From the NCBI GenBank assembly GCA_965216315.1, contig CBDCFN010000015.1, forward strand, positions 192,001 to 256,000: a stretch of DNA of 64,000 nt. Direction: 5' to 3'. How positions within the stretch are numbered: the first letter of the stretch is position 1; the number at the start of each line of letters is the position of its first letter. This DNA is from a bacterium (lineage in GTDB: Bacteria > UBA10199 > 2-02-FULL-50-16 > JAJFLM01). Under the pieces are notes generated by a model. That model was not told the origin of the DNA and searched no databases. It saw only the letters and a list, made by a program, of their open reading frames with translations. The position numbers and the translations under genes are program-made. Below are positions 5,226 through 63,206 of the stretch, piece by piece.

Positions 5226-6827
5226 ATGGTCGCCTTCTTCATGCTGGCCCGGCCCGTCGCATTTGTTTCCATTATTCTTGTTTTCCTAGCGTTTATTTCC
5301 TGCACCCAACAAGCCACTCAACCTCAGCAAGGTGGGATTCTGCGCTTAGGCAGCTTTCATAAACCGACCGAGATCAATCCGCTCACCACTGACTCGAGCA
5401 TCTCGGCCAACCTATTAGACCTCATCTTTGACAGCCTGGTTCGATTGGATAGTGAACAAAACATTGAGGCCGAACTCGCTAAACGCTGGGAGGTCTCTCC
5501 GGATGGTCTCCAGTGGACCTTTTACTTGCGCCCGGACATCGTGTTTCATGATGGCACTGCACTAACAGCCGAGGATGTTAAATTTACCTATGATCATATT
5601 ATTAACAGTCATCGGGGTGCCTATACCGTCTATTTTCAGTTTGTTAAAGAGGTCCGTGTCCTCGATACGCATACGGTGCAAATCAGTTTATCTCAATTCG
5701 ACAACGTGTTGTGGACCGGATTGGCCTATGTGGGCATTGCCCCCAAACATTTACTCGCCAAACCCGCAGCAAGCGCCCAATTCAACCAACATCCTATCGG
5801 TAGCGGCGCCTACCGTTTTGTCCGCCGCACGCCTCAAGAAATTATTCTAGAGGCAAACCAAAACTATTACCAACAGCGCCCTTATCTCGATCGCATCGCC
5901 ATCGTCATCTTGCCAAGTCAGGGCGCCGTCTTGAATCATCTGATTGCCGAGCAACTTGATATGGCGTTTCTATTGAATCCAGAAGACTATGGCGCCCTCA
6001 ACCAAATCCCTTCCATTAAAATCTATAATAATTGGTATCCTTTTTTGTACCTCCTCACCCTCGACAACCGCAATCCACTCTTTCGCTCTACAACCAACCG
6101 TCGGCTGCTCAATCAGGCCATCAACAAAGAACAAATTATTCAACGCCTCCTCAAGGACCAAGGGGAGATTGCCGCCAGTACTGTCCCGAGTAAAAGCCCT
6201 TTTTATAATGCCGCAGTGACCCCTTACCCTCATGACCCAAAAGGAGTCGCAAAAATGTTGGCCAAAAGCGGCTGGAAAACCCACAACAAGGACCACATCC
6301 TGCGTAAAAACAATCGTTATTTTGAATTTACCGCTTATGCGATGGAAGGGCATAGTATGGAAGAAAGAATCTTACTTAATGTTCAAGAACAATTACTCCT
6401 CCTCGGCATCAAAATGAACATTACCGTTCTCCCCTTCGATCAATATATAAAGAAAATATTTCGCGAACAGCATTTCGATGCAAATTTGATTTTTTTCGTT
6501 TTTCGAGATTTTTACGGAAACAATTCTAATATATGGGATTCCCAGCAGATCAAAAAGGGCATCAACTATTTATCGTATGCAAACCCTGAAATTGACCGCC
6601 TCTTAAAAACAATTCGCTTAGCGCGTTCCAAGCCCGATCAAATCGCCGCACTCAAAGAATTCCAAAGAATCATCCACGACGACCCTCCCGGTATTTTTCT
6701 CTTTTGGCGCAACATGCCCATTGCCGTTCACAAACGCTTCCGCGGCATTCCTACAGAGCAGATGAAGTCTCTGCGCGATCTTGTGCATGTTTGGGTGCCG
6801 AAGGAGGAGCAGATTTCTAAAAATTGA
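5226..6827 (+). CDS. ABC transporter family-5 (OppA/DppA-like) substrate-binding lipoprotein
   Basis: Lipobox FISC; LAKRWEVSPDG..WTFYLRPDIVFHDG..LTAEDVKFT; PIGSGAY. Start could be 5226 or 5241. Confidence 0.92.
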   Translation: MVAFFMLARPVAFVSIILVFLAFISCTQQATQPQQGGILRLGSFHKPTEINPLTTDSSISANLLDLIFDSLVRLDSEQNIEAELAKRWEVSPDGLQWTFYLRPDIVFHDGTALTAEDVKFTYDHIINSHRGAYTVYFQFVKEVRVLDTHTVQISLSQFDNVLWTGLAYVGIAPKHLLAKPAASAQFNQHPIGSGAYRFVRRTPQEIILEANQNYYQQRPYLDRIAIVILPSQGAVLNHLIAEQLDMAFLLNPEDYGALNQIPSIKIYNNWYPFLYLLTLDNRNPLFRSTTNRRLLNQAINKEQIIQRLLKDQGEIAASTVPSKSPFYNAAVTPYPHDPKGVAKMLAKSGWKTHNKDHILRKNNRYFEFTAYAMEGHSMEERILLNVQEQLLLLGIKMNITVLPFDQYIKKIFREQHFDANLIFFVFRDFYGNNSNIWDSQQIKKGINYLSYANPEIDRLLKTIRLARSKPDQIAALKEFQRIIHDDPPGIFLFWRNMPIAVHKRFRGIPTEQMKSLRDLVHVWVPKEEQISKN

Positions 6828-6872
6828 ATCCCCCTTAATCCCCCTTTACAAAGGGAGGCTAGTAGGGATTTA
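6827..6872. repeat. Repeat family R1, collapsed copy
   Basis: AATCCCCCTTAATCCCCCTTTACAAAGGGAGGCTAGTAGGGATTTA matches both ends of the copies at 37888 and 63065. Confidence 0.75.
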
Positions 6873-6955
6873 GGCGAAAATAAATAGTTTCCAGATAGTC
6901 GAATCTTGCCTAGCAATATTTGAAGTAGCTTTTTTCATGATTTGTAAAGTTGGAG

Positions 6956-11150: not shown

Positions 11151-12016
11151 TGCACACTCCTTTGCATCACACCCGGGAAATGGGCTAAATCCACATCAAA
11201 GCTATGGACTGGCACACCACCCGCGCTTACATGTGATGCCTCAATCCCCCCAAACGAAACGATCCCGATACCGGGCAAAGAACCCGGAGGGATCAAGCGA
11301 ACACTAACCTGACTTTGTTCGCCGTTATCTAAATCGCGAACCGTAAATGTATGCCGCCCCAGCGCGAGCGTATCTGGCGCCATTGTGAAGGTACCAAGGC
11401 TTATTGACGGTGAAATAACTGAATCTCCCAAGGAAACATCTAAGAGTACGTCGCTACTGCCCTCGGTGGCATCATCGATCTCAAGACGTCCCCCCGGCTC
11501 ACCGACACCGAGTAATTTAAGACGGTTTACGATAACGCGATTACCCGAACGCAAGTTCGTAAATAGTGGGACTGTGTTGAGCGACACAACGATGGGTTCG
11601 GCATTGTCTTTATCAATCGTAACATTCATGATCTGCTTGCGCCGAACCACCATTCCTTCTGAATTGAAGGCCTCGACCAAGAAAGTCCGTGCGGTACCAT
11701 CCGGAAGTTCATTAAGTTCCGTCCCGGTTGAATCAGCATCAAGATTAATGACCACGGGTTCTGCTAAATCCTCACCCGTCACGGTAACGACAAAGCGCAC
11801 GACACGTTGAATTTCGGGTAATTGCTCGACAGATAATCCAGCCGGACTGAGCGCATTTTCAATAATGAGATCGATGTTGACGTTTTCGTGGCGCGTGCAT
11901 GCAGTGCTAAGAAGAAGCAACACAGTCAATAAAATCCCCCTCAATCCCCCTTTGCAAAGGGGGAGGTGCCGGTGGTCCAAAATTACGCCCTTCTCTTTAT
12001 CAACGAAAAATGACAT
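11147..12016 (-). CDS. Hypothetical lipoprotein (Ig-like)
   Basis: LLLLLSTAC lipobox; beta-rich. Start uncertain (ATG 12016 overlaps the upstream gene end). Confidence 0.7.
   Translation of the reverse strand: MSFFVDKEKGVILDHRHLPLCKGGLRGILLTVLLLLSTACTRHENVNIDLIIENALSPAGLSVEQLPEIQRVVRFVVTVTGEDLAEPVVINLDADSTGTELNELPDGTARTFLVEAFNSEGMVVRRKQIMNVTIDKDNAEPIVVSLNTVPLFTNLRSGNRVIVNRLKLLGVGEPGGRLEIDDATEGSSDVLLDVSLGDSVISPSISLGTFTMAPDTLALGRHTFTVRDLDNGEQSQVSVRLIPPGSLPGIGIVSFGGIEASHVSAGGVPVHSFDVDLAHFPGVMQRSVQ
11931..11965. repeat. Repeat family R1 half copy, at or inside the lipoprotein 5' end
   Basis: AAAATCCCCCTCAATCCCCCTTTGCAAAGGGGGAG; translates as PLCKGGLRGIL. Confidence 0.75.
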
Positions 12017-28064: not shown

Positions 28065-28229
28065 TAAAATTACGCCCACTTTTTGACAAAAGCTGGAAAA
28101 AAAATTATCCGGTGCGCGCCTGATCCCACTCACGCCTGTTAGAGAATATCCTTATAATTCATATAGATAGATCTAAATAACCCTTTAGACCTTAGTTGGC
28201 ATGCGAATTGAATAGTACAAAGTGCACAT

Positions 28230-28448
28230 ATGGGATCATTACTTGAAATATCGACAGTCAAAAAGTGCCGCGTCTTCTTTGAAAAGACCTGCGATGAACA
28301 GGCACGCTATTTTTTCAGTGCCTATGTCCAATTGCCGGATCACACGCAGTTTATCATGGACGACCGCCATCTTCCTCGCCTCAAAAAACGGATCCATGCC
28401 GTCTTAGAGGTTCTCGCGTTCAGCGGTTCAGTACCTTTAGAAGTTTAA
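28230..28448 (+). CDS. Small hypothetical protein (72 aa)
   Basis: ORF preceded by a sigma54-like TGGCATGCGAATTGAA (28197-28212, non-canonical -12). Confidence 0.5.
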   Translation: MGSLLEISTVKKCRVFFEKTCDEQARYFFSAYVQLPDHTQFIMDDRHLPRLKKRIHAVLEVLAFSGSVPLEV

Positions 28449-28456
28449 TTTGTAGT

Positions 28457-28495
28457 TTATACCTTTACGGACGCGTCAAAGAGCCGGGCATGCTC
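28457..28495 (-). pseudogene. Orphan duplicate of the dgt 3' end (EHARLFDASVKV*)
   Basis: 39-nt copy of 28585-28623 with 7 synonymous third-position differences. Confidence 0.9.
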
Positions 28496-28499
28496 GTCG

Positions 28500-28579
28500 A
28501 TTCGCAAAGCGAAAGCGCAGCTTCCGCTTTGCTTGAGTCATGGGGAAGAAAACTCTCTCCCCCCTGACAACCCCCCATC
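28500..28579 (-). repeat. Repeat family R2 (two-hairpin element), copy C
   Basis: Minus strand GATGGGGGGTTGTCAGGGG..CCCCATGACTCAAGCAAAGCGGAAGCTGCGCTTTCGCTTTGCGAAT. Confidence 0.85.
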
Positions 28580-28584
28580 GCGAG

Positions 28585-29730
28585 CTACACCTTAACAGAC
28601 GCATCGAAAAGCCGGGCATGCTCTTCCAAAGCAAAGCGGTCAGTCATGCCCGCGATATAATCGCAGACAACGCGCTCGACACGGATATCATCGACTTTGT
28701 GACTGACATCGGCGGGTAGGATGTTGGGGTTTTTGCAATAGGCGCGAAAGAGATCTTCTAGGATGAGCTTCGCCTTCTCAGCCATACGTTCCACGCGAAA
28801 ATGTTTATAGAGTTTGCTATATAGAAACGCCTTGAGCTCTTTATTGGCGTGTTTCATTGTCGCCGAAAAGCCAACGCATTTGGCAGCGGCCTGCCGAACA
28901 TCCTCTAAACTACTAATGTCATGCGTCTCAATCGTTGCTTCCGTCGTTTGAACGAGGTCGGTTACCAGGGCATTGAGAATCGCCTTGACTGTTTGTCGTT
29001 GATGAACGAGTTCATGCTCGGAACAAGTCGCGCGCGTTTGTTCATAATGCTCCTTCCACAGGCTCACCTCTTGTAATTGCTCAACTGTAATCAGGCCCGA
29101 ACGCAACCCGTCATCTAAGTCATGGCTATTGTAAGCAATCTCATCGGCGATATCGACGAGTTGGGCTTCCAGTGTCGGTTGACCAATTTTTTGAAAGGCC
29201 GCTTGGGATTCATCATAAGACGTCGCGTGTTTGGCAATACCTTCGCGAACCTCATAACTGAGATTCAGCCCCGGAAAATCGGGATACCGTTTTTCAAGCA
29301 AGGTAACAATTCGTAGTGACTGCTTGTTATGCTCAAAACCCCCGAACTCTTTCATCAAATGATTCATGACATCCTGACCGGAGTGCCCAAAGGGAGTATG
29401 CCCTAAATCATGTGCCAGAATAATCGCTTCAGCGAGTTCTTCGTTGAGACGCAGCGCTCGCGCGATCGTCCGCGCAATCTGTGAACCTTCTAAGGTATGC
29501 GTCAGGCGCGTCCGGTAGTGATCACCTTCATGGAAGACAAAGACCTGCGTCTTATATTCAAGCCTTCTGAAGGCATTGGAATGGATAATACGATCACGAT
29601 CGCGTTGAAAAGCCGTTCGATAAGTGTGCTCTGGTTCTTCATATTCACGACCCTGCGAGGCCTTGCTCTGACAGGCATAAGGAGCCAGCATCTTGGTCTC
29701 TAAATTTTCATATTCCTGGCGGGTTAACAC
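28585..29730 (-). CDS. dgt: Deoxyguanosinetriphosphate triphosphohydrolase
   Basis: RTAFQRDRDRIIHS.AFRRLEYKTQVF, RTRLTHTLE, HDLGHTPFGHSG, DYIAGMTDRFA. Confidence 0.95.
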   Translation of the reverse strand: MLTRQEYENLETKMLAPYACQSKASQGREYEEPEHTYRTAFQRDRDRIIHSNAFRRLEYKTQVFVFHEGDHYRTRLTHTLEGSQIARTIARALRLNEELAEAIILAHDLGHTPFGHSGQDVMNHLMKEFGGFEHNKQSLRIVTLLEKRYPDFPGLNLSYEVREGIAKHATSYDESQAAFQKIGQPTLEAQLVDIADEIAYNSHDLDDGLRSGLITVEQLQEVSLWKEHYEQTRATCSEHELVHQRQTVKAILNALVTDLVQTTEATIETHDISSLEDVRQAAAKCVGFSATMKHANKELKAFLYSKLYKHFRVERMAEKAKLILEDLFRAYCKNPNILPADVSHKVDDIRVERVVCDYIAGMTDRFALEEHARLFDASVKV

Positions 29731-35870: not shown

Positions 35871-36995
35871 TTACTTACGACGTCTCAAAATCCCGAGCGT
35901 CCCAAGTCCCAAGGCGAGTAGCGTCGCACCCGCAGTTGAACTTCCCGCTGCCGTGATCAAGGAACAACCCCCCGCGGCATTGAGTGCATCTTCAAGGGAA
36001 CCATCGTCGGCGGCACTGCCTTCATCACCACTCCCGGTCCCATCGTCACTGCCTGCGGTGCCGTCGGAACCACCTGTGACGGGATCGGCACTTTCAGAAC
36101 CTTCTCCGCCGTCACCTTCTCCGCCGTCGTCGCCATCGCCGCCGTCGCCGCCGTCGCCGCCGTCACCACCATCACCGCCGTCGCCGCCGTCACCACCGTC
36201 ACCACCGCCGCAATCGCCGGCACAGTTTTCGGCATCTTCTCCACGCTCGCAAACGCCATTGCCACATTCGACAGATGGATCTTCATCGACGCACGAATTC
36301 GAACAACCGTCTCCGTCGACGTTGTTGCCATCATCGCAAGACTCGGGAACATCGACAACGCCATTGCCGCATGTCGTCGTTCCATCACCATGATTGGTGC
36401 AATCATTGCGGCACATGTCACCATTGTTGGTCACGTTGCCGTCATCGCAACCCTCACCATCATCTAAAAGGCCATCACCGCATTCACCCGCTTCGATCAG
36501 ACAATTTTCATCACAGCCATCTCCATTGTCGGTGCCTCCATCTTCACATTCTTCACCGGCTTGGAGAATACCGTCGCCACATGCTGGAGACCCTTCATTC
36601 GTACAATCGGCAGCACAGCCATCGCCATCCTCATTATTGCCATCATCACATTCTTCTAGATCGGGAGCTTCATTATCGCCCCAGAAATTGGCATCCGGGA
36701 TGGTATCTTCCGCGTTTGTATTGCTATGAGAGTCATGAATTACTCCATCACCACATCTCGCTAGAATACAATTTGACTTACAATCATCATTGTCATTCGC
36801 GTTATAGTCTTCGCAATGCTCGCTGTCACCTTCGCCATTCTCAAGCCCATCGTTGCAGACAGTATTAACCGCTGTGTCAGCGTAGGTTGTTACCGTAAAA
36901 CCCAGCGCGAGCACACAGGCGAAAACTCCCATTAAAGTATATTGAACTAGTCGTGTCATATCCCGACCCCCTATATCTGAACCCATCATATTCAT
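35871..36995 (-). CDS. Myxococcus-type Cys-rich repeat (DUF4215-like) surface protein with full GGC-TM-RRRK tail
   Basis: CGDG..EECDDGN..DGDGC repeats; tail GGCSLITAAGSSTAGATLLALGLGTLGILRRRK. Start may be 36959. Confidence 0.88.
   Translation of the reverse strand: MNMMGSDIGGRDMTRLVQYTLMGVFACVLALGFTVTTYADTAVNTVCNDGLENGEGDSEHCEDYNANDNDDCKSNCILARCGDGVIHDSHSNTNAEDTIPDANFWGDNEAPDLEECDDGNNEDGDGCAADCTNEGSPACGDGILQAGEECEDGGTDNGDGCDENCLIEAGECGDGLLDDGEGCDDGNVTNNGDMCRNDCTNHGDGTTTCGNGVVDVPESCDDGNNVDGDGCSNSCVDEDPSVECGNGVCERGEDAENCAGDCGGGDGGDGGDGGDGGDGGDGGDGGDGDDGGEGDGGEGSESADPVTGGSDGTAGSDDGTGSGDEGSAADDGSLEDALNAAGGCSLITAAGSSTAGATLLALGLGTLGILRRRK
36105..36210. repeat. 9-nt tandem repeat encoding a (GGD)n linker
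   Basis: Repeated ccgccgtcg/ccaccgtca units. Confidence 0.85.
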
Positions 36996-37883: not shown

Positions 37884-37887
37884 CCAA

Positions 37888-37981
37888 TTAAATCCCTCCT
37901 AGCCTCCCTTTACAAAAGGGAGGGACCTCAAGTGGAAACCGATATCTCCCCCTTTGTAAAGGGGGATCGAGGGGGATTTAA
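37888..37981. repeat. Repeat family R1, full TTAA-bounded MITE-like copy
   Basis: TTAAATCCCTCCTAGCCTCCCTTTACAAAAGGGAG...CTCCCCCTTTGTAAAGGGGGATCGAGGGGGATTTAA. Confidence 0.85.
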
Positions 37982-37982
37982 C

Positions 37983-38525
37983 CTACAACACCGGCCGGAC
38001 CTTAGAAATATCCCGACTGATACTCTCAAATTCCTGTTTAAAATCCGCTAAGACATCCTGCGCAAATGAAATAGGATCAATCTTATAATCCGCTAAGCCT
38101 CTGGTCGGTACGGGCGTCCCTTGCGATGAGATGTTGATCCCGGCATGCAACAAAGTCGAGACCTGAGAGGCCGTCGCTATGGAGACGGTGAGCTTATCAT
38201 CCCCCTCATACAGGTCATTACCGGTTCGTCGCAAAGGCGCTTGAATCCTTTGCTGTATCAGGCTGACCAGCAAGCGCTGCAACAAGATAGTCTGCGGCAA
38301 ATCATTGTTAAAAAACTCGCCGATGAAATGGAGCATCCGCTGACTCGCAATCGGCCGTTGATGGCGGACATCTTCAAGATCGACCATGCGCTCGAGACTG
38401 ACATCACAGGCCCCGACAAAGGCAACGAGGGCGTCCCCTAATTGACCGGTTTTCTCATAGATCCAGTGCGAACGTAATTGGGACCCGTCGTAAGTTATCT
38501 CGTTGTCGATTAATTGGACTCTCAT
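37983..38525 (-). CDS. DUF366 family protein
   Basis: YDGSQLRSHW, GACDV...MVDLED, MLHFIGE, GNDLY..KLTVSIAT, HAGINI; ATGA overlap with queC. Confidence 0.8.
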   Translation of the reverse strand: MRVQLIDNEITYDGSQLRSHWIYEKTGQLGDALVAFVGACDVSLERMVDLEDVRHQRPIASQRMLHFIGEFFNNDLPQTILLQRLLVSLIQQRIQAPLRRTGNDLYEGDDKLTVSIATASQVSTLLHAGINISSQGTPVPTRGLADYKIDPISFAQDVLADFKQEFESISRDISKVRPVL

Positions 38526-39905: not shown

Positions 39906-40092
39906 CGGCAAGTAATCCCCCTTAACTAACCGATATCATTAAATTAATAATCTTTATCGACCCACGGACCCCCCTCAAAATCCGCCTCAATCTGACCTCA
40001 ATACCCCCCCAAAGCGATGTCCGCAGTCCCCACACCTACGCAATCCTCTCAGCCCACCTTTAATTAAGGGGTTCCCCTAGAGAGCAACGTCA

Positions 40093-40171
40093 GATGAGGG
40101 ATTGTTAAGGGAGAGCGCGGTATCTCTCCCTTAACTAAAGCCTCCTGGAAGCTGTGCTTTCAGGAGGCGAA
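40093..40171 (+). repeat. Repeat family R2, copy B
   Basis: GATGAGGGATTGTTAAGGGAGAGCGCGGTATCTCTCCCTTAACTAAAGCCTCCTGGAAGCTGTGCTTTCAGGAGGCGAA. Confidence 0.85.
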
Positions 40172-40262
40172 ACGAGTTACCCCGCCTTCCGGTATGCCCT
40201 TAAAAAGGGCTCCAGACAAAGGCGGGGCGAGGGAGGTACTTTTAATGGATGACGCTAACGCG

Positions 40263-45446: not shown

Positions 45447-45890
45447 TTACTTCTTTTTTTCCTTAGAGTCTTTTTTTTCAGCTGGTTCGGCCCCCGTGAG
45501 CACTTGGGCCACCTGTTTCTTATCCAACTTGATGCGGACATTTTCGGCAATCTCCACACCAACCGTCGCATCAGTGACCGAAGTAATCTTTCCGAAGATG
45601 CCCGAAGCCGTCACGACCTCGTCGCCCCGTTTCACTTCGCTGAGCATCGCTGCGTGTTTCTTTTGTTGTTTCGCTTGGGGACGAATGAGGAGAAAATAGA
45701 AGATCAAGAAAACCAAGATCATCGGCATAAAGAGACCGAGACCGCCGCCGGCTCCCTTGCCGCCTTCCCCGCCTGGAGCCGACATCGCCCAAGAGACGAT
45801 GGGTAGAAGACTTAATAAAATTCCCCCGAGGCCCCCTTTATAAAGAGGGGAAGCCCAGGTGCTAATCAATGCCTTGCGCCCGTTTCTCAT
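45447..45890 (-). CDS. yajC: Preprotein translocase subunit YajC
   Basis: IFYFLLIRPQAKQQKKH..GDEVVTASGIFGKI. Start uncertain. Confidence 0.95.
   Translation of the reverse strand: MRNGRKALISTWASPLYKGGLGGILLSLLPIVSWAMSAPGGEGGKGAGGGLGLFMPMILVFLIFYFLLIRPQAKQQKKHAAMLSEVKRGDEVVTASGIFGKITSVTDATVGVEIAENVRIKLDKKQVAQVLTGAEPAEKKDSKEKKK
45817..45851. repeat. Repeat family R1 half copy, in the yajC 5' region
   Basis: AAAATTCCCCCGAGGCCCCCTTTATAAAGAGGGGA; translates as PLYKGGLGGIL. Confidence 0.65.
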
Positions 45891-48699: not shown

Positions 48700-50163
48700 A
48701 TGGGTGCAAATCGATTGATGGGAGGCGTTGTTTTTGGAGCCTTCCTGATATTTTTTTCATCACAGGTATCCGCTGCGGTTTTCACTGTTACAAATACGGA
48801 TGACGCGGGAGCGGGCTCGCTGCGGCAGGCTATTATTGATGCCGAGACCTCCGGTGGATCCGATGACATTAATTTTGATGTGACAGGGACGATCACACTA
48901 AACAGTGCCTTACCGACCTTGACACAAAGTGTGAGCCTATTGGGGCCCGGTGCCAATCAGCTAACAATTGATGCCAACGGCGCCACGACAAGTGCCCGCA
49001 TTTTTACACTCGATAGCCCCGCTGATGACCAAAGTTTCAACATCTCGGGGCTGACCCTGACCGGGGGACGCTCTGCCGGCGGCCCTAACAGTGATGGTGG
49101 GGCCATCCGCATCGAAAGTGGAGACACACTCGATCTTGCTTTTTGCACCTTCACAAATAATGACACTTCGATCGCAGACCGTAATGGTGGTGCTATTGAC
49201 ATTGACTTTAATGCTACCGTCACAATCGACAGCTGCACGTTCAGCAACAATAATGCAACTGACGGCGGCGCTATTCAAAGTGGTGGGAGTCTCTCGATAA
49301 ACAATAGTACGTTCTCCAGTAACGAAGCCAAGAACACTGGAGGAGGTGGTGCTGTATTGAGTAACGGCGGCGATCTCGTAATCACGAATAGCACATTTAA
49401 TAACAATAAAGCCGAAGGAAGTGCCGGCGCTCTCTATACCAGTGTCAATGCATCTATCAGCAACTCAACCTTTGCGGCAAATGAAGCGGGCCCCACTGAG
49501 GACGGCGGTGCTATCTATATTGTCGCAGGCGCGAATGTCACCATAGACAACGTAACAGTTAGCGGGAACACCGCTGGCTCTGGCGCGGGTATCAGCGCAG
49601 TAACGGGAACCGGTACGATCAAGAATACTATTCTTGCCAATAATACCGGCGGCAACTGCGACGGGGCTGTCGTCTCCGCTGGCAACAATATCGACAGTGG
49701 AACAAGTTGTGGCCTAGGCAGCAGCGGTGACCAGAGCTCGACCGATCCTTTGTTAGCCACTCTGCAAAATAACAGTGGGCCCACTCGGACTATGGCCCTG
49801 CAAGCAGGAAGTCCCGCCATCGATAAGGGATCCTGTACGGATATCGGCGGCAACGATGTATTTCTTGATCAGCGCGGTTCCGAGCGTCCTGCCGGGACAA
49901 CCTGTGACATCGGTGCCTTTGAAGTTTCGGTCTGTGGAGATGACATATTAGGTGCGGATGAAGAATGCGACGACGCCAATACAATCGATACCGACGACTG
50001 CACCGCCGCATGCAAAGACAACATTTGTGGAGACGGGAGCGTCCTCGAAGGCTTTGAAGATTGCGATGACGGCAATACTGACGATGGCGACGGCTGTGAC
50101 AGTACTTGTGTCGATGAAGAAGGGGTCGCCGGCATCGGCGGATGTGCTCTAATCCGCCGCTAG
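48700..50163 (+). CDS. Beta-helix/choice-of-anchor-Q surface protein with Cys-rich repeats and short GGCALIRR tail
   Basis: VTNTDDAGAGSLRQAI, GGAI repeats, DPLLATLQNNSGPTRTMALQAGSPAID..DQRG..CDIGAFE, CGD..ECDD repeats. Confidence 0.88.
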   Translation: MGANRLMGGVVFGAFLIFFSSQVSAAVFTVTNTDDAGAGSLRQAIIDAETSGGSDDINFDVTGTITLNSALPTLTQSVSLLGPGANQLTIDANGATTSARIFTLDSPADDQSFNISGLTLTGGRSAGGPNSDGGAIRIESGDTLDLAFCTFTNNDTSIADRNGGAIDIDFNATVTIDSCTFSNNNATDGGAIQSGGSLSINNSTFSSNEAKNTGGGGAVLSNGGDLVITNSTFNNNKAEGSAGALYTSVNASISNSTFAANEAGPTEDGGAIYIVAGANVTIDNVTVSGNTAGSGAGISAVTGTGTIKNTILANNTGGNCDGAVVSAGNNIDSGTSCGLGSSGDQSSTDPLLATLQNNSGPTRTMALQAGSPAIDKGSCTDIGGNDVFLDQRGSERPAGTTCDIGAFEVSVCGDDILGADEECDDANTIDTDDCTAACKDNICGDGSVLEGFEDCDDGNTDDGDGCDSTCVDEEGVAGIGGCALIRR

Positions 50164-54047: not shown

Positions 54048-54095
54048 AGAAGTGCCTGAATAGATGCCAAGAATAAGCTGGAATTGCAATTTACA

Positions 54096-54172
54096 GATGG
54101 GGGTTGTCAGGGGGAGCGCGGTATCACCCCCTGACTAGAGCACAATGGAAGCTCAGCTTTCATTGTGCGAAT
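54096..54172 (+). repeat. Repeat family R2, copy A
   Basis: GATGGGGGTTGTCAGGGGGAGCGCGGTATCACCCCCTGACTAGAGCACAATGGAAGCTCAGCTTTCATTGTGCGAAT. Confidence 0.85.
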
Positions 54173-54233
54173 TGACAAGGCGCGTCATTTAGGGTAAAGA
54201 GCTATCCAGTCTTGCCTGGGACAGGAGACTCAG

Positions 54234-55508: not shown

Positions 55509-55572
55509 TTATTTCTTTGCGGGAATAGGCATTCCCAATTTCTTCATTACCTGCTGCAGATCCTCCCACACA
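55509..55572 (-). pseudogene. Orphan duplicate of the udg 3' end ([20 protein letters not shown])
   Basis: Copy of 55665-55725; near-identical on the gene-proximal side, diverging towards the stop. Confidence 0.88.
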
Positions 55573-55664
55573 CTATTCATAGGGGCTTGCGTCGCCCCCT
55601 CCGGTCGGCAAAGCCGCCGGAACCTCCCCCTCTCGGACGCTTTGCGTCCTAGGTCGGATCTGCT
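55573..55664 (-). repeat. Three-hairpin element (R3) between the duplicated udg ends
   Basis: Minus strand GGACGC-AAA-GCGTCC; TCCGG-CGGC-TTT-GCCG-A-CCGGA; GGGGC-GACGCAA-GCCCC. Single copy in this window. Confidence 0.6.
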
Positions 55665-56357
55665 TTATTTTTTAGGTATTGGTAAATTCAATTTCTTCAT
55701 GACCTGCTGCAGATCCTCCCACACATCCTTCTTCTTGTATTCGTTACGGAGGAGATAGGCGGGGTGATAGGTGGGCATCATATCAATACCGGCCACCTGG
55801 TGAAACTGGCCCCGCAAACGCGTGATTCCCATTTCGGTTCCAAGTAAAGCCTTCACCGCAACATTCCCAAGGCCAATCAACATCTTCGGGCTAACCGTTG
55901 CAATTTGGCGCAACAAGAAGGGGTAGCACGTCTCTATCTCGGAAGGTTCCGGATTGCGATTATTGGGTGGGCGGCATTTGACGATATTGGCAATGTAGAC
56001 ATCGTCCCGTTTCAGGCCCATCGCCTCAATCATCCGCGTCAACAACTGTCCGGCACGTCCGACAAAAGGTTCGCCCTTTACGTCCTCATCTTGCCCCGGT
56101 CCTTCACCGATAAACATAATATCCGCGTTAGGGCTACCGACTCCAAAAACAATGTTGGTTCGACCACTGCAAAGCTTGCAGCGCTCACAGTCACCTATAT
56201 CTGCTCTAATGTCTTCGAGACTCTCCTTTTTCAACTCATCGCTACTTGATTTTGCGAGCTGATTCGACTGCGGTAAATCGGGAATCCCCAGTTCCGCTTG
56301 ATACTCAAGTTCCGCTTTGAGCTGATTGGCAATTTGCTCTCGCTCACCCATCGCCAA
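55665..56357 (-). CDS. udg: Family-4 uracil-DNA glycosylase
   Basis: [43 protein letters not shown]. Confidence 0.95.
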
Positions 56358-56463
56358 TGATCACTAGGACCATTCACACCCTAGAGTCAACCGGTGCCTC
56401 TCCTGCCACCGCGCTCCCCCGTATAGACCTTGTTATTTGCTCGGAAGCGACTATGATGGTCCC

Positions 56464-60512: not shown

Positions 60513-62399
60513 ATGTATTTCCCACGTATTATGCAAAGAGCCTTATTGGTCATCACTGCACTCAGCTTCGTATCCGTCGGGATCCATTCAACGGCTCTTG
60601 GGGCCACCTTCAATGTCAATAGCACAACGGATGCCGTTGATAGCAGCCCGGGAGACGGCAGTTGCAATGACGGCAGTGGGAATTGCACGCTGCGCGCCGC
60701 CGTGATGGAGATCAATGCCTTGGGGGAAAACAGCAACACGATTAACTTGCAGGCCCAGATCTACCGATTGACGATCGATCCGAGCACGACCCCCTCAGAA
60801 GGATCTTTTTTCTCCAATGATGCCAAAGGAGACCTAGATATCGCCGTCAGTACCGACATCCTCGGGCAAGGCGCCGATCAAACTGCCATTGAGGCCGACT
60901 ATGATAATAACCAAGCGGCGCGCGTTATTCATGTTGTCAGCAATGATGCCACCAACACGGTTTCGCTCTTTAATCTGACAATTAGAAACGGCAACGAACC
61001 AGCTGCTGTGACCGGTGATGGCTGCGGAGGCGGCATTTTCGTTGAATTCAATCAGAATCTTAACCTCAATCGCGTCGCTGTCACTAATAACAGCGGAGAT
61101 GCCGGCGGGGGGATCTATCATTCGGGTGGACAAGGTGAGATCGCGATTAATGACAGCACGATCAGTGGCAATCATGCCTTCGGCTCAACCGTCTGCGGCC
61201 CTCCAGGAGGCGGGGGAATCTATACGCGGGCGTTTACCACCATTATCAACAGCACCATTAGTGGCAATACGACCAATAACTACGGTGGAGGCCTTTTCAA
61301 CGACGGCTCGGCGAGCTCCGTATTACGCAACGTGACCGTATCCAATAACACGGCCGACTTAGACGAGAACAATACCGGAAACGGCGGGGGTATCTATGAC
61401 CGATCACCAACGACGATCTTCCTCCGCAATACTATTGTTGCGGGCAATTTCGATAATTCAACCTCGATTCCCGTCGTTAATCTGACCCCGGGTCTGAGCG
61501 CTCAGGTTGCCGTGCCGACGATTCATCCCGATTGCTCGGAAAACGGCGGCAGTATCGTTTCCGAGGACTATAACTTGATCGGTGATGAGACCGGGTGCGC
61601 GAGTGCCGCGTCCTGGAATCTCTCAACAGATCTAGTCGGAACCAGTGCTAGTCCGATTCCCCCGCAATTGGATCCCTTGGCCGACAACGGCGGTCCGACC
61701 CGCACCCATGCGCTTCAGGATGACAGCCCGGCCCTCGATGGCGCCGACCCGAGCGGTTGTACCGCGGACTCTGATTTCACCGTCCCCTTAACAGCGGATC
61801 AACGCGGTGAGCCGCGCCCGGTCGATGGCGACGAGAACGGCTCCGCGATCTGCGACATCGGAGCCTTTGAGTTGCAACCGACAGCCTGTGGCGACGGAAC
61901 GGTCGATGCCGGCGAGGAATGCGATGACGGAAACACCGCGGACAACGACGGCTGCTCCGCCACCTGCGTCATTGAGGCCTGTGGTGACGGTGTCCTGCAA
62001 ACCGACGAAGAATGTGACGACAGCAATACTGTCAATGGAGATGGCTGCGACAGCACCTGTCAGAACGAGGCGGGATTCACGCCAACATGTGGTGATGGTA
62101 TTCTTCAAACCAACGAAGAGTGTGATGACGGCAACAAAACGAATGGAGACGGTTGCGATGCCAACTGCAATTTCGAATGCGGTAATGGCACGCGTGAAGG
62201 CAATGAACAATGCGATGATGGCAACGTCGTCGACGGCGACGGTTGCTCGGCCACGTGTACCACTGAAAACCTCCCGTTTGTGCTCATCGGCAAAGGCGGC
62301 TGTAGCCTGAACCCAGCCATGACCGGAAGCATCGGTGGAAGCCTTGTCTGGCTGCTGGTACCCTTTGCCGGCCTGGTCTGGAGACGTCGTCGAAGTTAA
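60513..62399 (+). CDS. CSLREA/choice-of-anchor-Q surface protein with Cys-rich repeats and full GGC-TM-RRRR tail
   Basis: VNSTTD..GDGSC..CTLRAAV; LADNGGPTRTHAL..SPALD..DQRG..CDIGAFE; tail KGGCSLNP..LVWLLVPFAGLVWRRRRS. Confidence 0.9.
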   Translation: MYFPRIMQRALLVITALSFVSVGIHSTALGATFNVNSTTDAVDSSPGDGSCNDGSGNCTLRAAVMEINALGENSNTINLQAQIYRLTIDPSTTPSEGSFFSNDAKGDLDIAVSTDILGQGADQTAIEADYDNNQAARVIHVVSNDATNTVSLFNLTIRNGNEPAAVTGDGCGGGIFVEFNQNLNLNRVAVTNNSGDAGGGIYHSGGQGEIAINDSTISGNHAFGSTVCGPPGGGGIYTRAFTTIINSTISGNTTNNYGGGLFNDGSASSVLRNVTVSNNTADLDENNTGNGGGIYDRSPTTIFLRNTIVAGNFDNSTSIPVVNLTPGLSAQVAVPTIHPDCSENGGSIVSEDYNLIGDETGCASAASWNLSTDLVGTSASPIPPQLDPLADNGGPTRTHALQDDSPALDGADPSGCTADSDFTVPLTADQRGEPRPVDGDENGSAICDIGAFELQPTACGDGTVDAGEECDDGNTADNDGCSATCVIEACGDGVLQTDEECDDSNTVNGDGCDSTCQNEAGFTPTCGDGILQTNEECDDGNKTNGDGCDANCNFECGNGTREGNEQCDDGNVVDGDGCSATCTTENLPFVLIGKGGCSLNPAMTGSIGGSLVWLLVPFAGLVWRRRRS

Positions 62400-63064: not shown

Positions 63065-63189
63065 TTAAATCCCCCTTAGCCAGCCTTGCCGGCAGGCTGG
63101 TCCCCCTTTACAAAGGGGGAGATCACGGTTTCAATTTATGTCCCCATTCTTGTCCCTCCCTTTGTAAAGGGAGGTTAGGAGGGATTTAA
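63065..63189. repeat. Repeat family R1, full TTAA-bounded copy with nested palindrome
   Basis: TTAAATCCCCCTTAG[CCAGCCTTGCCGGCAGGCTGG]TCCCCCTTTACAAAGGGGGAG...CTCCCTTTGTAAAGGGAGGTTAGGAGGGATTTAA. Confidence 0.85.
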
Positions 63190-63206
63190 TCTACCTCAAA
63201 CTCCAT

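Follow-up and report, generated by a model that had tools for sequence, protein, structure and literature searches.

Synonymously diverged copies of the dgt gene end flank a small hairpin repeat, with similar sites elsewhere in a bacterial genome

The dgt gene in a 64,000-nt stretch of bacterial DNA (hereafter the window; contig CBDCFN010000015.1 of assembly GCA_965216315.1, positions 192,001 to 256,000) carries its 3' end twice, and the two copies, which differ by silent changes only, enclose a small multi-copy repeat of a family here called E. The same arrangement is found at 15 sites of the 2.96-Mb genome, with E or with two further repeat families, F and G, between the copies. The reading that is favoured, and that is regarded as rather probable for dgt, is that the E element and a replacement dgt end arrived together from a diverged relative with a working allele. 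The parts of the dgt site, in window coordinates, are the following.

28585 to 29730, minus strand: dgt-like HD-domain triphosphohydrolase gene, 381 aa (from the list of open reading frames (ORFs), the translation and Pfam)
28623 to 28585, minus strand: working dgt 3' end, 12 codons and TAG joined to the gene body, encoding EHARLFDASVKV*
28500 to 28582, no strand assigned: E-family element, 83 nt, with two hairpins (from 31 nhmmer matches and the alignment of copies)
28496 to 28499, no strand assigned: 4-nt joint between the inner edge of the orphan end and the left terminus of E (read from the sequence)
28495 to 28457, minus strand: orphan dgt end, the same 12 codons with TAA, untranslated and in its native downstream context
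28230 to 28448, plus strand: convergent ORF of 72 aa (from the ORF list), which marks the native neighbourhood of the orphan and may not be a real gene

The 381-aa product shows Pfam matches to HD and HD_assoc and is hence described as a dGTPase-like triphosphohydrolase; dgt was present in all of the 41 genomes searched, a count which takes in this genome. The two copies of its end are offset by 128 nt from start to start, and between them lie 89 nt in all, which comprise the 4-nt joint, the 83-nt element and 2 nt before the stop codon of the gene. The joint falls outside both the repeat consensus and the duplicated stretch. The copies differ at 7 of their 39 bases, with the initial 14 nt identical and all differences in the last 25 nt. 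These are six synonymous third positions and the change of TAG to TAA, which leave the peptide EHARLFDASVKV unchanged, and when seven substitutions were placed at random on the 39-nt end, the peptide was kept in 0 of 20,000 trials. The preliminary description of this stretch had reported a dgt end doubled with silent changes only around a hairpin element, and this holds on re-reading (7 of 7 differences synonymous; an element of 83 nt with two hairpins). The C-terminus of the protein is conserved among relatives and is therefore under selection. The frame of the orphan has a stop codon 14 codons upstream, and 8 nt separate its own stop from that of the convergent ORF, in which no Pfam match was found. 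Around dgt there were no intrinsic-terminator-like sites, and promoter-like sites were no more frequent than in shuffled sequence.

Doubled gene ends of this kind recur in the genome. The flanks of every E copy were compared, and self-BLAST and a sliding-window scan for close direct repeats were run; the scan gave 54 candidates, 45 of them with a spacer of at least 40 nt, and the spacer was multi-copy in 21 of these 45. The genome scan for doubled gene ends that the preliminary description had proposed has thus been carried out, and it finds the layout of gene end, multi-copy element and orphan end at 15 sites, which comprise 12 protein genes and 3 tRNA or transfer-messenger RNA (tmRNA) genes. 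This count leaves out the direct repeats with multi-copy spacers at C16:1483355, 2210461, 2266528 and 2355203. Direct repeats in the rRNA spacer and at a pair of tRNA-Ser genes were likewise not counted, being E repeats or paralogous tRNA genes. The sites are distributed over the families as follows.

Family E (about 30 copies in the genome): dgt 3' end; secA 5' end
Family F (39 matches): hisF and two further genes, each at the 5' end; two gene-pair junctions; a UDG-family gene at its 3' end
Family G (about 11 copies): mnmE and three further genes, each at the 3' end
E followed by F: two tRNA-Ala genes, in their 3' parts; the tmRNA gene, in its 5' part

With the exception of dgt and the UDG-family gene, the names secA, hisF, mnmE and others were read from translated termini and not from family searches. 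The duplications are variable in length, with 39 nt at dgt, 33-72 nt at the other protein sites and 33-81 nt over the whole range; the duplicated parts of the two tRNA-Ala genes are identical at 53/53 and 55/56 positions. The UDG-family site is the second of its kind in the window.

55665 to 56360, minus strand: UDG-superfamily gene, its 3' end doubled around an F repeat
55689 to 55725, minus strand: gene copy of the doubled end
about 55579 to 55646: F repeat
55536 to 55572, minus strand: orphan copy (the whole site spans 55536 to 55725)

Its copies are 37 nt long and show one difference, which is synonymous; they cover 12 conserved codons, after which follows a tail with differing amino acids.

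The manner in which the copies differ carries most of the argument. Over 11 protein sites, with the UDG-family gene as the twelfth left out of the codon count, 59 changed codons were synonymous and 2 non-synonymous, both of the latter in mnmE. The synonymous set includes stop-to-stop changes and two arginine changes at the first position (CGA/AGG and AGG/CGG). Neutral decay of a duplicate in place is ruled out by these counts, since a decaying orphan would change mostly at first and second codon positions. Rather, it is strongly supported that the orphans are the sequence of working alleles and not decayed duplicates, and the earlier proposal that both dgt copies had evolved as coding sequence gains equally strong support from the same 11 sites. 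Each orphan agrees with its gene copy at every base of an inner block of 8-29 nt, and 10 of the 11 pairs differ further out. By the author's own estimate, made from per-codon difference rates, the identical blocks at dgt, at mnmE and at C16:359186 exceed the length to be expected by chance from the outer divergence.

The anatomy of the sites bears on the mechanism. The likeness between the copies ends exactly at the start or the stop codon, and a unique stretch of 3-35 nt separates the gene copy from the element; at three of the F sites that lie ahead of gene starts, it holds a GGAG of its own at ribosome-site distance. The orphans in turn sit in native surroundings. For example, the ATG of the hisF orphan lies 2 nt after the stop of an upstream 247-aa ORF, and at C16:1841496 the stop of the orphan lies 5 nt before the ATG that opens the long frame of the next gene, while a diverged remnant of the start of that next gene stands behind the gene-side copy at the same offset. 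The limits of likeness and the native context of the orphans therefore agree with two alleles in which the non-coding flanks are no longer recognisably alike. The inner edge of the orphan is directly abutted by one fixed terminus in each family (the left one of E, the right ones of F and G), and each of these termini lies a few bases from a GC-rich hairpin. The joint therefore appears to be specific to the element end rather than random and illegitimate. No motif is common to the inner blocks at the 12 protein-gene sites.

The main rival to the joint arrival of element and gene end is a long target duplication that arose in place from breaks staggered by 40-110 nt, followed by recombination with element-free relatives that replaced part of one copy. 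It accounts for the narrow size range of 33-81 nt better than the favoured reading does; where the duplicate spans two genes (C16:752048 and C16:1841496) both flanking genes are intact, and little or no difference separates the copies in the RNA-gene pairs and in one protein pair (53/53, 55/56 and 54/57). Precedents are also on record, as excerpts of two papers describe long variable target duplications for restriction-modification genes (PMC2853133) and variable duplications of 3-26 bp for the YPAL repeats (PMC2229807). This rival is nevertheless held to be unlikely. It offers no reason for a likeness that stops at start and stop codons, which, as is argued here, target duplication would not produce, and it leaves the unique ribosome-site stretches beside the gene copies unexplained. 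Moreover, it needs a later import at 10 of the 11 protein sites, each of them ending inside an orphan of 33-72 nt and within a time too short for one neutral change in the untouched inner blocks. Since the inner blocks are identical and undecayed although 10 of 11 pairs already differ, the insertion can hardly be set apart in time from the import of the allele, and the two are argued to be one event; if they were not, such an import would have had to reach 10 of 11 very young inserts separately.

The E family was characterized from 27 blastn and 31 nhmmer matches in the genome, one of the latter being an opposite-strand echo of another copy. The dgt-site element comprises the left terminus ATTCGC, hairpin 1 (28504-28532), hairpin 2 (28537-28568) and a C-rich conserved tail (28569-28582). 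The 201-nt region around it has a folding z-score of -3.8, and both stems are maintained through compensatory changes in 24 aligned copies. The element pairs better on the minus strand, running with dgt (consensus energy -27.2 vs -20.1), and the alignment holds 39 G-U cells on that strand vs 1 on the other. Across the copies, the loop region of hairpin 1 is conserved whereas its outer stem is variable, and the alignment shows that its two termini (ATTCGC... and ...CCCATCG) do not form an inverted repeat. In Rfam 15, there was no covariance-model match around the element at E-values up to 10, no match at gathering score across the whole window and only chance-level matches around F.

The placement of E is far from even. 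Its left end lies 0-7 nt from the end of a tRNA or tmRNA gene in 15 of the 31 matches, with 7 at 3' ends and 8 at 5' ends, and this is not chance because the genome has only 44 such genes. E hence behaves as a targeted element. Two G copies similarly stand no more than 5 nt from the 5' ends of tRNA-Ser(gga) and tRNA-Glu (C15:71864-71946 and C16:2077801-2077888), and they resemble E at tRNA genes in this respect. The rRNA operon spacer around tRNA-Ile and tRNA-Ala (C16:1707994-1708445) holds two E and two F copies, all on the strand opposite to the operon.

Two other patterns were tried and dropped. Guide-like pairing between the variable stem of hairpin 1 and the flanks of the same copy gave a mean longest shared word of 5.4, against 5.23 (standard deviation 0.19) for stems compared with the flanks of other copies. 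There is no general signal in this, and a 10-nt match appears at the dgt copy only: a word of dgt coding sequence at 28631-28640, 8 nt upstream of the duplicated stretch, equals the hairpin 1 stem of the adjoining E, which could be chance or a trace of joint formation. A replication-strand bias was likewise set aside; F leans with the GC-skew halves of the large contig (7/10 '+' vs 15/20 '-'), while E shows no bias and gene orientation confounds that of F.

The reality of the dgt site in the assembled sequence is supported by short-read contigs from two samples of one study, which may be the assembly's own data. They cover 28200-28539, with the orphan and the left part of E, and 28551-28900, with the right part of E and the gene end, each with 0 differences; the whole element is spanned by no single short-read contig. 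That last point, together with the metagenome-derived look of the genome (16 contigs), is what would favour a two-strain chimera produced by the assembly. Both the orphan-element joint and the element-gene joint, however, lie inside contigs in two samples, an element-free strain would show gene body at the inner edge of the orphan, and the same layout occurs at 15 sites; an artefact of this kind is hardly credible.

The reads also bear on whether the element might leave and re-enter often, as a prophage does, so that the orphan would be under selection whenever the site is empty. Precise loss through the 14-nt identical core would leave an intact gene with the orphan-type end, and the absence of decay in the orphans would follow naturally. 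Such frequent excision is nonetheless quite improbable. The contigs of four runs, at low coverage, showed neither an empty site nor its joint at dgt, no recombinase is tied to the elements, and a separate origin of the two diverged ends would still be needed. Two runs (X5 and X6) gave contigs that match only conserved parts of dgt at low likeness and are uninformative on this organism. The proposal in the preliminary description to look for reads across an empty site or a circle junction thus yielded both insert junctions, in contigs, and neither of the two forms sought.

The likeness to attL and attR that was noted earlier raises the further possibility of a scar, in which a larger prophage or island lost its interior and left its two attachment sites. 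The layout agrees with integration that restores a gene end, a mitochondrial analogue of which appears in excerpts of PMC3630166. The sequence between the copies, however, is a multi-copy 83-nt repeat and not unique DNA, the same families stand between the doubled ends of 15 genes with no common core, and the five integrase-family matches lie elsewhere in the genome. A scar is therefore close to refuted; of the attL/attR comparison the layout stands, and neither an integrase inside the element nor a core common to the sites was found.

If element and gene end arrived together, the present dgt would run from the resident gene body through the 14-nt identical stretch into an imported 25-nt end and stop, and then over 2 nt to E. 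From the left terminus of E, the sequence would continue over the 4-nt joint to the resident's own 14-nt stretch and its old end, which would stay in its native place as an untranslated orphan. The gene-side copy would accordingly be the imported one, and element and new end would have come in one event. Entry may have required one homologous exchange inside the gene and one joint specific to the element end; alternatively, a single exchange with a small circle may have sufficed. Inserts at gene, tRNA and tmRNA ends would be tolerated because the gene stays intact and the cost of the insert is small. The miniature element with a replacement end that the preliminary description had suggested thus keeps its order of new end, element and old end, its joint arrival follows by argument only, and its donor was not found.

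As an enzyme that might mobilise the elements, the product of the single RAYT-like HUH transposase gene of the genome is a candidate only. This gene is the one match to Y1_Tnp (31 bits, above the Pfam cut-off) and reaches 55 bits against NCBIfam REP_Tyr_transpos, below the 80-bit cut-off. No E or F match lies within 3 kb of it (G was not part of that search). All five Phage_integrase-family matches of the genome lie away from the dgt site, there are no RVT_1 matches for a reverse transcriptase, and the 89-nt insert at dgt has no room for a recombinase or endonuclease ORF. The preliminary description had pointed to RAYT/HUH, reverse transcriptase or recombinase genes beside the repeat, and among the genes so searched none proved to be flanked by it. 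The RAYT-like gene has its own 3' end (about 40 codons) repeated within tandem units of 356 nt at C16:1212440-1213330 (L145:392-1282); 6 synonymous and 2 non-synonymous codon differences occur in the coding part of the unit, and the non-coding rest is only about 80% alike.

Several observations weigh against joint arrival from a relative. No donor allele, empty-site allele, excised form or circle junction has been seen. The best dgt relatives reach 70-72% protein identity among 40 related genomes and 75% among 75 metagenome loci, and E stands beside dgt in 0 of 104 loci from relatives and metagenomes; the comparison of dgt between genomes that had been suggested earlier was thus made with relatives at most 75% identical. 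The dgt-site element is 95% identical to the copy adjoining tRNA-Val in the same genome, a match that fits internal movement as well as import. The synonymous sites of dgt are near saturation (7 of the 9 codons after the core), yet none of the 12 residues has changed, which is somewhat unexpected given that relatives differ at 2-4 of these 12 terminal residues; a search by DNA similarity also picks up pairs more readily when few amino acids have changed. The identical inner block measures just 8-13 nt at some sites, too short for ordinary RecA exchange, and the confinement of the duplications to 33-81 nt is explained more simply by a staggered cut than by a free choice of joint. Finally, the E motif had no exact match in viral contigs and the whole 90-nt E element no blastn match in plasmids, so that no vehicle was found.

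Comparison with known systems places the sites between several classes. Prophage e14 and phage 21 at the 3' end of E. coli icd reportedly show the same order of gene body, new end carried by the insert, insert, and orphan old end, and there too the ends are said to differ mainly synonymously, with a short identical stretch on the gene-body side. At dgt, there is likewise a direct repeat of the gene end on both sides of the insert with the gene intact. Unlike those prophages, the insert consists of 83 nt of non-coding hairpins without an integrase, the 15 target genes have no attachment core in common, three unrelated-looking families behave alike, and the 5' ends of genes and of RNA genes are affected as well.

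Mobile endonuclease ORFs of fungal mitochondria offer a second likeness. Excerpts of PMC3630166 describe ORFs in Glomus (atp6, atp9, cox2 and nad3) and Allomyces (atp6) that bring a foreign C-terminus while the native one lies downstream, and ascribe the foreign ends to transfer from another lineage. As here, a foreign and mostly synonymously diverged end is followed by a mobile insert and then by the native end. Their spread, however, is driven by a homing endonuclease, whereas the inserts studied here hold no ORF, stand in a bacterial chromosome and occur also at gene starts and at tRNA and tmRNA ends (PMC3630166).

A third comparison concerns restriction-modification inserts in Helicobacter, Haemophilus, Thermus and others, which, in the part of PMC2853133 available, have target direct repeats of more than 30 bp, no transposase and a mechanism described as unknown; some of these repeats overlap gene 3' ends or tRNA genes. 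The dgt site agrees with this class (that of Nobusato and Furuta) in its target repeat of more than 30 bp and in an insert without mobility genes. Those inserts, however, are gene-sized and their repeats highly identical (44/46 and 47/47), with no synonymous pattern described in that part of the source (PMC2853133), whereas the sites described here hold a tiny multi-copy repeat between copies that differ in the manner of alleles.

The small repeats of bacteria, such as REP/REPIN, YPAL/RU-2, Correia and RUP, are similar in being short, structured, multi-copy and mostly extragenic, and the single RAYT-like gene of this genome adds to the likeness. E agrees with REP/REPIN as a short palindromic extragenic repeat in many copies, but the RAYT-like gene is not flanked by its own repeats as far as E and F are concerned (G was not looked for). 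Terminal inverted repeats are absent, as is a fixed short target duplication, both of which define miniature inverted-repeat transposable elements. YPAL repeats show variable duplications of 3-26 bp next to a dyad symmetry, and the available part of that source makes no mention of replacement gene ends (PMC2229807); the duplications described here are of 33-81 nt and not of 2-26 bp. A search of full-text literature, with supplements outside its scope, found analogues only and no small non-coding bacterial repeats flanked by synonymously diverged gene ends.

E extends beyond this genome. Hairpin 2 and the tail were found in 9 of 40 related genomes of the same class, and in one of these (locus L141) a full E again abuts the 3' end of a tRNA-Ala gene. 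In another related genome (L132:1501-1771), a complete tRNA-Ala gene is followed, about 113 nt downstream, by a partial tRNA 3' end which the left end of E adjoins; this order is the reverse of that in the present genome. The exact tail motif of 19-20 nt occurs in at least 118 stretches of species-representative genomes; among the 80 loci inspected, most carry Nitrospirota or Nitrospiria labels and the others 'Deltaproteobacteria' or Pseudomonadota. Three cyanobacterial matches and one of Anaerolineaceae have no hairpin and look like coincidences in coding sequence. Flank repeats were present at 10 of 84 tail-motif instances among the matches listed, and the layout seen at dgt is apparent at two of the ten, namely L180, where the repeat covers 81 nt of a tRNA, and L181, where it covers 53 nt of a gene start, the remaining ones being tandem elements or paralogues. 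In metagenome-assembled genomes of Nitrospirota (L159, L164, L174, L192, L204, L206, L221 and others), a short E consisting of hairpin 2 and the tail often lies 3-6 nt from a CAT, which on the other strand is a possible start codon just downstream of E.

A wider and more speculative proposal, which is possible but on the whole doubtful, is that E, F and G represent a widespread undescribed class of non-autonomous 'gene-end cassette' elements. Each element would then consist of a terminal hairpin and a short piece of a host gene end that serves as a homing address. A hairpin-specific enzyme acting in trans, perhaps the RAYT-like HUH transposase, or else breaks induced by the hairpin would mobilise it, and it would spread across lineages, even phyla, by swapping in its own gene, tRNA or tmRNA terminus, with the orphans marking its invasions.

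Should these readings be correct, the elements would be very small and non-disruptive mobile DNA of bacterial chromosomes that brings its own copy of a gene terminus. They would open an entry route for short foreign segments into essential genes such as secA, hisF, mnmE, tRNA and tmRNA, and the resulting mosaic gene ends could mislead phylogenies and gene callers. Undecayed orphans would mark recent events and thereby provide a dated record of exchange between lineages. Likewise, inserts that split operon junctions and supply new ribosome sites may alter expression. The sites would further provide many small and clean examples in which to study how insertion with long target duplication, so far unexplained, comes about.

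The window also holds two E copies away from doubled gene ends.

40091 to 40174, minus strand: E copy, intergenic, no flanking duplication detected
54095 to 54174, minus strand: E copy, intergenic, no flanking duplication detected

Another repeat family, built on the palindrome TCCCCCTTTGCAAAGGGGGA with C-rich flanking arms, occurs at 6822-6878, 11928-11973, 37886-37986, 45814-45847 and 63101-63194. Coding repeat arrays rich in cysteine and aspartate, interrelated on both strands, are found at 36091-36660, 49960-50120 and 61882-62250.

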